Assembly: GCA_023485685.1 (NCBI GenBank)
Contig: JAMCZK010000054.1
Span: 2,440 to 66,439, forward strand
DNA: 64,000 nucleotides
Reading direction: 5' to 3'
Source: Chloroflexota bacterium
GTDB taxonomy: Bacteria; Chloroflexota; Anaerolineae; Anaerolineales; UBA11579
The position numbers were made by a program, and so were the translations under genes. Of this stretch, positions 16,142 to 16,407 are shown one piece after another (the first letter of the stretch is position 1; the number at the start of each line of letters is the position of its first letter). The notes beneath the pieces are model-generated. The model was not told the origin of the DNA. It searched no databases and was given only the letters and a program-made list of their open reading frames with translations.

Positions 16142-16407
16142 CCATTCGTCAAGGAATACCAGGAACGAGAATTAACAAGGAGATCGAGATGTCTAAACTC
16201 AAACTGAACGCTATCGCTACACAAGCTTTGCTGGACAAGGAATTCAAGGCTGCCCTGTTGAGCGGCAAAGGTCAGGATCGCCTGGGCGCCTTCCAACTCA
16301 ATGATGAGGAAGTCCAGGCGGTGATGTCCATCCAGGCTATGGATCTGGATCAGTTCATCCGCCACCTCAGCGGCCTCATCCAGCCCACGCAGGCTTTGGC
16401 CTAAGTG
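16093..16407 (+). repeat. Copy 1 of a 315-bp perfect direct repeat (period 590 bp)
   Basis: Read base by base: 16093-16407 is identical to 16683-16997. It spans the last 18 nt of the peptide gene, the spacer with RBS, and the whole 71-aa gene plus 3 nt. Confidence 0.95.
16189..16404 (+). CDS. 71-aa helical protein resembling an NHLP/LigA-type RiPP leader, without a core (copy 1)
   Basis: AAGGAG RBS 7 nt upstream of the ATG. Sequence MSKLKLNAIATQALLDKEFKAALLSG...FQLNDEEVQAVMSIQAMDLDQFIRHL. The helix pattern xxAxxDxxFKAxLL and L(T/N)xEExxA recalls NHLP/LigA-subunit-like leader domains. No Cys and no GG cleavage motif. Confidence 0.7.
   Translation: MSKLKLNAIATQALLDKEFKAALLSGKGQDRLGAFQLNDEEVQAVMSIQAMDLDQFIRHLSGLIQPTQALA

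Follow-up and report, generated by a model that had tools for sequence, protein, structure and literature searches.

Genuine leaders of the nitrile hydratase-like leader peptide (NHLP) type, which belong to precursors of ribosomally synthesised peptides with post-translational modifications (RiPPs), are marked by a Gly-Gly cleavage motif, a hypervariable core, clustering with maturase genes and a peptidase-ABC exporter (PMC2887384). Os1348 of Pseudomonas sp. Os17 is a small, all-helical, stand-alone protein of 85 amino acids (aa) that has no Gly-Gly site; it is under Gac/Rsm control, and its neighbours are a GNAT protein, a HEXXH-peptidase-like protein, a SagB-type dehydrogenase and an efflux pump (PMC7726476). 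Its structure is a comma-shaped, six-helix fold that forms a homodimer, for which the authors found no structural relatives (PMC7726476). The Protein Data Bank (PDB) entry 6lk7 (85 aa, four chains, labelled nitrile hydratase alpha chain) is very likely the Os1348 crystal structure of that paper. The gene studied here, N, lies in a stretch of 64,000 nucleotides (nt) from an Anaerolineales genome (Chloroflexota; contig JAMCZK010000054.1), referred to as the window, and encodes a helical protein of 71 aa (first copy, N1, 16189-16404, + strand, ATG start). An earlier description made from the letters of the window alone (the sequence-only reading) had taken N for a stand-alone RiPP leader without a core, lying next to a leaderless Gly-rich peptide gene (P), and had allowed for a chaperone, immunity or regulatory partner instead. 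The regulatory alternative is the one favoured by the present analysis: with a probability of roughly one half, N is a regulatory partner and not a RiPP. The best explanation of the data is that N belongs, as the third constant member, to a regulatory cassette specific to Chloroflexota that also contains a large regulator (R) and P. A regulatory role is argued for by the universal presence of R as partner, by fusions of N to receiver and M78 domains, by signalling neighbours in every divergent locus and by the failure to find a maturase.

The cassette was followed through 79 non-redundant Chloroflexota loci, including the window (numbered with the prefix L), which were gathered by genome scans queried with an alignment of 16 N sequences, by metagenome scans and by exact-protein look-ups. 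Counts were restricted to loci with sufficient flanking sequence, namely at least 3.6 kb upstream for R, at least 450 nt upstream for the promoter and P, and at least 2.5 kb downstream for a gene encoding an HD-GYP protein. A full-length homologue of R (37-81% identity) adjoins N in 43 of 43 loci, and this adjacency holds amid wholly different other neighbours in L009, L023-L031, L033, L034, L038 and L074-L087; in two loci (L029 and L033) R lies downstream of N instead. P was recognised by an automatic filter in 57 of 71 loci and most of the rest were found by eye, so the pairing of a Gly-rich peptide with N, on which the sequence-only reading depended, recurs far beyond the window. In most loci P lies between an R-type promoter and N; L049, and the first unit in each of L012, L042 and L046, genuinely lack it. 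Of 43 loci with enough downstream flank, 32 have an HD-GYP gene no more than 5 kb downstream of N. Many loci of the close clade are syntenic over their whole length, and the informative ones are the approximately 30 loci with changed flanks. The block consisting of R, promoter, P and N persists despite changed flanks or rearranged order (L009, L023-L040 and L074-L087).

The company that N keeps outside this block is that of signal transduction proteins. N is fused to a receiver domain in one protein (P0107, L034) and to an M78 peptidase in another (P0143), while the genes 3' of N in other loci encode a stand-alone receiver (L025), a Trans_reg_C protein (L029), a HisKA histidine kinase (L035) or GAF proteins. 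Tandem N-domain paralogues occur in L037 (302-1923) and L040 (126-921), one of which is fused to an M78 (ImmA/IrrE-like) peptidase, and in L040 an M78-domain protein follows N as a separate gene. M78 peptidases usually pair with an XRE-type helix-turn-helix (HTH) protein, and in L037 and L040 it is N that sits in this position. A DUF5317 membrane protein is encoded between P and N in L035 (205-771) and L038 (7367-7981); no relevant literature on DUF5317 was found.

No machinery for RiPP production was detected where annotation or a Pfam scan reached. Radical SAM proteins, YcaO/cyclodehydratases, LanM/LanB, ATP-grasp and SagB-like proteins and peptidase-ABC exporters are missing from every annotated neighbourhood. 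A Pfam scan of the 36 larger open reading frames (ORFs) of the window gave no RiPP maturase or exporter, and neither an immunity gene nor a C39-ABC exporter was present in the annotated neighbourhoods or among these 36 ORFs. The GNAT, HEXXH-peptidase-like and SagB-type dehydrogenase genes of the Os1348 locus were likewise not seen in the N loci examined. The only C39-like peptidase of the window is a 461-aa protein that combines Peptidase_C39_2 with TPRs and is encoded 45 kb away (61037-62422, - strand). C39-type peptidases cleave after Gly-Gly, and P is rich in this motif. Rfam searches returned nothing at the locus (E <= 1) or in the whole window (gathering thresholds), and no tRNAs were found.

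The 71-aa ORF is a real gene that is under strong purifying selection. Among the 11 orthologues for which the synonymous rate (dS) was measurable, 10 give a ratio of nonsynonymous to synonymous substitution rates (dN/dS) of 0.04-0.18 and one, L022, gives 0.32. Since selection acts on the frame of the + strand, the antisense ORF at 16129-16449 was ruled out as a true gene. N has 53 homologues with 66-99% identity, almost all 69-73 aa long and nearly all from assemblies of Anaerolineales or other Chloroflexota, and it evolves more slowly than its neighbours (compared with L013, 85% identity for N, 66% for R and 74% for the HD-GYP protein). The good ribosome-binding site noted earlier is AAGGAG, 7 nt 5' of the ATG. 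The window carries an identical second copy, N2 (16779-16994, + strand), as part of an exact direct repeat of 315 nt (16093-16407 and 16683-16997) that takes in the last part of the upstream peptide gene, the spacer and the complete N ORF. The spacer measures 78 nt in both copies (16111-16188 and 16701-16778) rather than the 88 nt first given, and the statement that a Gly-rich peptide gene always precedes N applies to N2, where P is intact (P2), whereas N1 is preceded by a decayed remnant. Close relatives differ in how many P-N units they carry (one to three copies of N in L011, L012, L042, L048, L049 and L051). The contig of L011 starts within the repeat; assemblies thus break at the exact P-N duplication.

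Profile searches identify N as a remote member of the NHLP clan that scores below family-level cut-offs and has Os1348 and Frankia_peptide as its nearest curated families. The best profile, NF038399 (the Os1348 family in NCBIfam), aligns with N along positions 3-60 of its 63 at E = 1.4e-4, with 21.9 bits against a curated cut-off of 40 bits; PF14407 (Frankia_peptide in Pfam) follows at E = 0.015, with 16.1 bits against a gathering threshold of 48 bits. At a threshold of E <= 0.01, NF038399 is matched by 48 of 58 aligned family members (best 2.7e-11) and PF14407 by 27 of 58 (best 4.9e-10), and a precomputed PF14407 match exists for several distant relatives. TIGR03793, the model of NHLP leaders, gave no match to the N of the window at E <= 1 and none among the 58 members, and Nif11 was matched by none of the 58. 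The resemblance to LigA is marginal (PF07746 in 1 of 58 members, E = 0.0096; PRK13377 in one, E = 0.0039). The NHLP half of the proposed NHLP/LigA resemblance therefore stands as remote homology while the LigA half largely falls away, and the searches placed N in no unrelated, well-characterised family. The sole PDB sequence approached by the N profile is 6lk7, weakly (E = 0.03-0.07). An exhaustive profile search with N yielded 110 further distant representatives.

An AlphaFold2 model of N (mean pLDDT, a predicted measure of local accuracy, 81.5) contains five helices (residues 3-15, 17-25, 29-35, 39-46 and 53-62), with residues 66-71 disordered. Two such models (pLDDT 79 and 81.5) were compared with the PDB by Foldseek, the better one also with BFVD, and no match at E < 1 was obtained, 6lk7 included. 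N has no signal peptide and its first 65 residues have a mean net charge of -1.5; it is a cytoplasmic, slightly acidic five-helix protein. Its net acidity and the lack of a fold match led to the rejection of a role as a DNA-binding HTH protein. The C-terminal end reads ...FIRHLSGLIQPTQALA. As the sequence-only reading held, there is no Gly-Gly site, no Cys/Ser/Thr-rich core and no modifiable tail: Cys is absent from N, a GG or GA cleavage motif is absent from all 27 aligned homologues, and the tail in the clade of the window consists of 5-9 small residues (LIQP-xxAxx) that are semi-conserved and free of Cys. The tails of the 110 distant representatives vary widely in length and sequence and are not Cys-rich.

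The constant partner R is a regulator of 1077 aa (12569-15802, + strand) in which a MalT-type STAND NTPase and a MalT winged helix precede a TPR sensor, and which ends at its C terminus in a SARP module (an OmpR-type winged HTH and a BTAD domain). The NCBIfam MalT model matches residues 6-484 (5e-75), and Pfam assigns TPR_12, TPR_MalT and, at residues 933-1072, BTAD (1.4e-21). The TPR sensor of R varies more than any other part of it (0.46-0.66, compared with 0.72-0.94 for the NTPase). A terminator-like hairpin followed by a T-run lies behind the R gene (15867-15900, + strand), and relatives have a comparable GC hairpin and T-run at the equivalent place. It is followed by a promoter element (15906-15939, + strand) made of CTCATAG-N5-TTCATAG (15906-15924), 9 nt and a TAGAAT -10 box (15934-15939), so that the tandem direct repeat GTTCATAG recurs at 12 nt from start to start. 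The window holds only one perfect copy of this element. Across the survey it was found in 68 of 71 loci, 250-390 nt 5' of N and always just before P, and it is kept in the most distant loci and where R lies downstream. SARP/OmpR-type activators work via tandem direct repeats that take the place of the -35 box. By inference, R very probably activates the P-N operon, and its SARP domain may bind the tandem repeat. P2 is preceded by a degenerate element only, which suggests that the second copy is probably transcribed by read-through from the first promoter. The listed ORF at 15938-16141 begins inside the -10 box and is probably untranslated.

P2 (16509-16700, + strand) encodes 63 aa, MCNSIKISA followed by four tandem units of [N/C]QPLSGGIGG, and has no hydrophobic leader. 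Over nine shared codons the units show 40 synonymous nucleotide differences and no nonsynonymous one, indicating that the amino-acid sequence of P2 is under selection. The P1 remnant before N1 (15970-16110, + strand) has kept a GGAGG, but its ATG is directly followed by TAA and, relative to P2, it carries Gly-to-Val substitutions and a 1-nt deletion; decay of this type is also seen in L032, L044 and L045. Homologues in the close clade have one to five units of x-P-x-GGG-[IV]-G around the invariant core P-x-G-G-G-[IV]-G (for example HPVGGGVGTGP, YPIGGGIGSGP, NQPVGGGIGH, QPTGGGIGG, QPCGGGVGTGP and YPMGGGIGT). Neither this repeat form nor the form with a hydrophobic helix matches a Pfam or NCBIfam family. 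A profile search with P returned 7 matches, with variants of two, three and four units among them, and was swamped by Gly-rich words; a match to microcin B17 (E = 0.53) was dismissed as noise.

In distant loci P is a protein of 45-65 aa whose polar, basic N terminus leads into a hydrophobic helix some 20 residues long; an AxA-like site and a short tail of 8-25 aa at the C terminus follow, an export-like layout that was judged by inspection. With a slash marking the site, the C-terminal parts read ...VVFA/GPSIGGVGS in L026, ...VLA/QPSMGGSVGS... in L039, ...ALA/GFADGGIGS...GFADGGMGS in L036, ...AYA/MPDGGGGCGTPGC in L034 and ...AYA/FPTSGGVGG in L060, and the tail in L074 is ...PPLGGGIGGG. The positive-inside rule provides a basis for orienting such a hydrophobic helix and, applied by eye, predicts that the tail of the ancestral P lies outside the cell. 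Both forms of P begin with similar residues (M-x-K-x-x-F or Y). Because the distant P has a signal-like segment of its own in addition to these shared first residues, the leaderless state in the clade of the window looks derived, through loss of the hydrophobic segment and multiplication of the tail unit.

The P-N spacer is unstructured (z = +1.5 relative to shuffled sequences) and in relatives ranges from 9 to about 90 nt, which fits co-transcription of P and N. P as an attenuator or upstream ORF for N was ruled out, because the spacer is unstructured and variable in length and P is under selection at the amino-acid level. The 104-nt spacer between N1 and P2 (16405-16508) folds at -40.3 kcal/mol (z = -4.0), with two strong RNA hairpins at about 16405-16477 (+ strand) that lack a U-tract and might act in RNA processing or stability, or as a leaky terminator. 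At 50 nt after N2 begins the gene for a 1050-aa protein (17044-20196, + strand) in which Pfam finds GAF_2 in five stretches and HD_5 (6.9e-38); this GAF/HD-GYP protein is a predicted cyclic di-GMP (c-di-GMP) phosphodiesterase. A PAS-GGDEF diguanylate cyclase is encoded 3 kb downstream of it (23308-24693, + strand), in synteny in all close relatives, so that enzymes for making and for breaking down c-di-GMP share one neighbourhood.

These components suggest how the cassette might operate. R, as a STAND switch, would bind the tandem GTTCATAG repeat and turn on the P-N operon, which may extend into the HD-GYP gene. Within P, the Gly-rich unit ([Q/H/Y]-P-x-GGG-[IV]-G) would serve as signal or ligand; in its ancestral form P would be secreted by means of the signal-like helix, and in the clade of the window it would have become leaderless and multiplied. 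N, being co-induced, would bind R or another signalling protein further downstream and would modulate the regulator by feedback; its most parsimonious role would be that of an anti-activator or adaptor, much as TraM acts on TraR, and the output of the cassette would be hydrolysis of c-di-GMP. The more specific proposal that N is a co-induced anti-activator of R is put forward tentatively. A broader scheme is the more speculative: the cassette may be an unrecognised Chloroflexota pheromone system with a STAND/TPR/SARP receptor, a Gly-rich peptide, a c-di-GMP switch and N as an NHLP-fold adaptor or anti-activator. In that scheme P would be secreted in most lineages, and the leaderless, four-fold form of the window would resemble a multi-copy pheromone precursor.

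Several observations weigh against a regulatory N. The hypervariable tails of distant N proteins look like RiPP or pheromone cores, and a few of them (P0116, P0128) hold P-like Gly-rich stretches. The P-N units are tandemly multiplied, as is typical of RiPP precursor genes. The Foldseek comparison supplied no structural relative of N to back a role as binding module. The survey runs in the direction from N to R only. The usual spacing of SARP boxes is 11 nt, compared with 12 nt here. The loss of the export helix in the clade of the window is awkward for a secreted signal.

The variable tails and the tandem multiplication can be read as signs of a RiPP. In the split arrangement that the sequence-only reading proposed, N would be a leader acting in trans for maturases encoded elsewhere and the repeats of P would be the core. 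Membership of N in the NHLP clan is in keeping with this, as are the leaderless P of the window clade, whose short repeated units recall multi-core precursors, the multiplied P-N units and the Cys or Ser residues beside Gly in some P tails (for example SCGSGVGG and GGGGCGTPGC). The arrangement is nevertheless improbable, since the maturases, C39-ABC exporter and immunity gene were missing wherever annotation or the Pfam scan reached, the ancestral P has its own hydrophobic segment and a tail predicted to lie outside while N has no export signal, L049 retains N although it has no P, fusions join N to receiver and M78 domains, and it is R that is constant (43 of 43). A related idea makes N itself the precursor, its 65-aa domain being a leader and its variable tail a pheromone or RiPP that proteases (M78, DUF5317 or others) set free. 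It gains from the diversity of the tails that follow the conserved domain in the distant representatives, from the disorder of the tail in the model, from the adjacency or fusion of N to M78 peptidases, from the DUF5317 protein between P and N in L035 and L038, and from the proposal that Os1348, the nearest curated relative, is a precursor (PMC7726476). This idea is quite unlikely as well, though marginally less so: the tail in the window clade is a semi-conserved run of 5-9 small residues without a cleavage motif, M78 and DUF5317 occur in few loci, a maturase was found in no annotated neighbourhood, and each residue of the 65-aa domain is constrained more strongly than would be expected of a disposable leader.

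Two explanations dispense with RiPP chemistry. N could be a chaperone, carrier or immunity protein that keeps P soluble, delivers it or neutralises it, and the strict adjacency of P and N, their apparent co-transcription across a short, unstructured spacer and their duplication as a unit are all compatible with such a function. It is an unlikely one given that N is cytoplasmic while the tail of the ancestral P is predicted to be extracytoplasmic, that N occurs without P in L049 and in the first units of L012, L042 and L046, and that identical N proteins stand beside differing P units, in the window QPLSGGIGG and in L011 QPTGGGIGG. Alternatively, N might be a conserved hypothetical gene with no functional link to its neighbours, carried along in inherited synteny; most loci of the close clade are indeed syntenic over more than 16 kb that include the housekeeping genes rpsP, rimM, queA and ruvB. 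This is very improbable, as the block of R, promoter, P and N survives where all other neighbours have changed or the order is rearranged, and the promoter element is conserved. The reading of N as a regulatory partner is therefore preferred.

The cassette (STAND-SARP regulator, tandem-repeat promoter, P, N and usually an HD-GYP gene) is spread through Anaerolineales and other Chloroflexota, including many metagenomes, and appears to be undescribed so far. No publication describing the R-P-N cassette was found, nor anything relevant on Franean1_4349, on NHLP in combination with Chloroflexi and TPR, or on RRNPP systems in Chloroflexi. If the proposed mechanism is correct, peptide signalling tied to c-di-GMP control would be new for Chloroflexota. 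If the pheromone scheme holds in particular, NHLP-type "leaders" would have arisen from, or would also serve as, stand-alone regulatory modules that bind proteins. N offers an entry point to non-leader roles of NHLP-type helical domains and to the origin of long, structured RiPP leaders. The locus also calls for caution in genome mining: an NHLP-clan match beside a Gly-rich mini-ORF mimics a RiPP locus, but the conserved context here is purely one of signal transduction.

Elsewhere in the window, a further signalling cluster (36095-39475) places a Ser/Thr protein kinase, an FHA-Trans_reg_C regulator and a CpXC-domain protein side by side. The region 50047-57791 may be a defence or mobile island; encoded there are a DEAD helicase that carries MrfA Zn-binding and HNH domains, a DNA methylase, a HerA-like DUF87 ATPase and a 445-aa ORF without a Pfam match.

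Among described systems, NHLP leaders and proteusins share with N a helical domain of similar size and, by way of Os1348 and PF14407, a clan; tandem gene multiplication and the variable tails of distant N relatives are further points of likeness. N has none of the four defining features of NHLP leaders (a TIGR03793 match, a Gly-Gly or Gly-Ala site, a Cys/Ser/Thr/Gly-rich core, and a maturase with exporter). Os1348 is closer, being like N a small, all-helical, stand-alone protein without Gly-Gly whose family provides the best profile for N, but the neighbours of N are different (a STAND-SARP regulator, a Gly-rich peptide and an HD-GYP gene). TraM and anti-activators of the QslA type are small, all-helical proteins, dimeric in the case of TraM, that are encoded near or under the control of the regulator they inhibit and exert negative feedback. 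The role proposed for N would be of this kind, although N has no sequence similarity or detectable fold similarity to them.

The regulator has precedents of its own. With MalT and AfsR, R shares the MalT NTPase and winged helix, the TPR sensor and BTAD, but its order is NTPase, TPR and winged HTH/BTAD, whereas the SARP module of AfsR is N-terminal. The promoter element resembles SARP-activated promoters in that tandem direct repeats abut the -10 box, and departs from them in the repeat spacing of 12 nt. The RRNPP cassettes (Rap-Phr, NprR-NprX, PlcR-PapR and AimR-AimP-AimX) belong to Bacillota rather than Chloroflexota, and their regulators have an XRE-HTH-TPR or phosphatase-TPR architecture in place of the STAND NTPase and SARP output of R. 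The P of the window clade, with four tandem units and no export signal, also differs from theirs, and the conserved, folded third protein N has no RRNPP counterpart. In its logic, the cassette nevertheless comes nearest to RRNPP signalling. As in the RRNPP cassettes, a TPR-containing cytoplasmic regulator adjoins a small gene, the regulator varies most in its sensor region and, by inspection, the distant P has an export-like N-terminal helix and a putative short, mature C-terminal part. The order R, P and a third small gene, N, recalls aimR-aimP-aimX.

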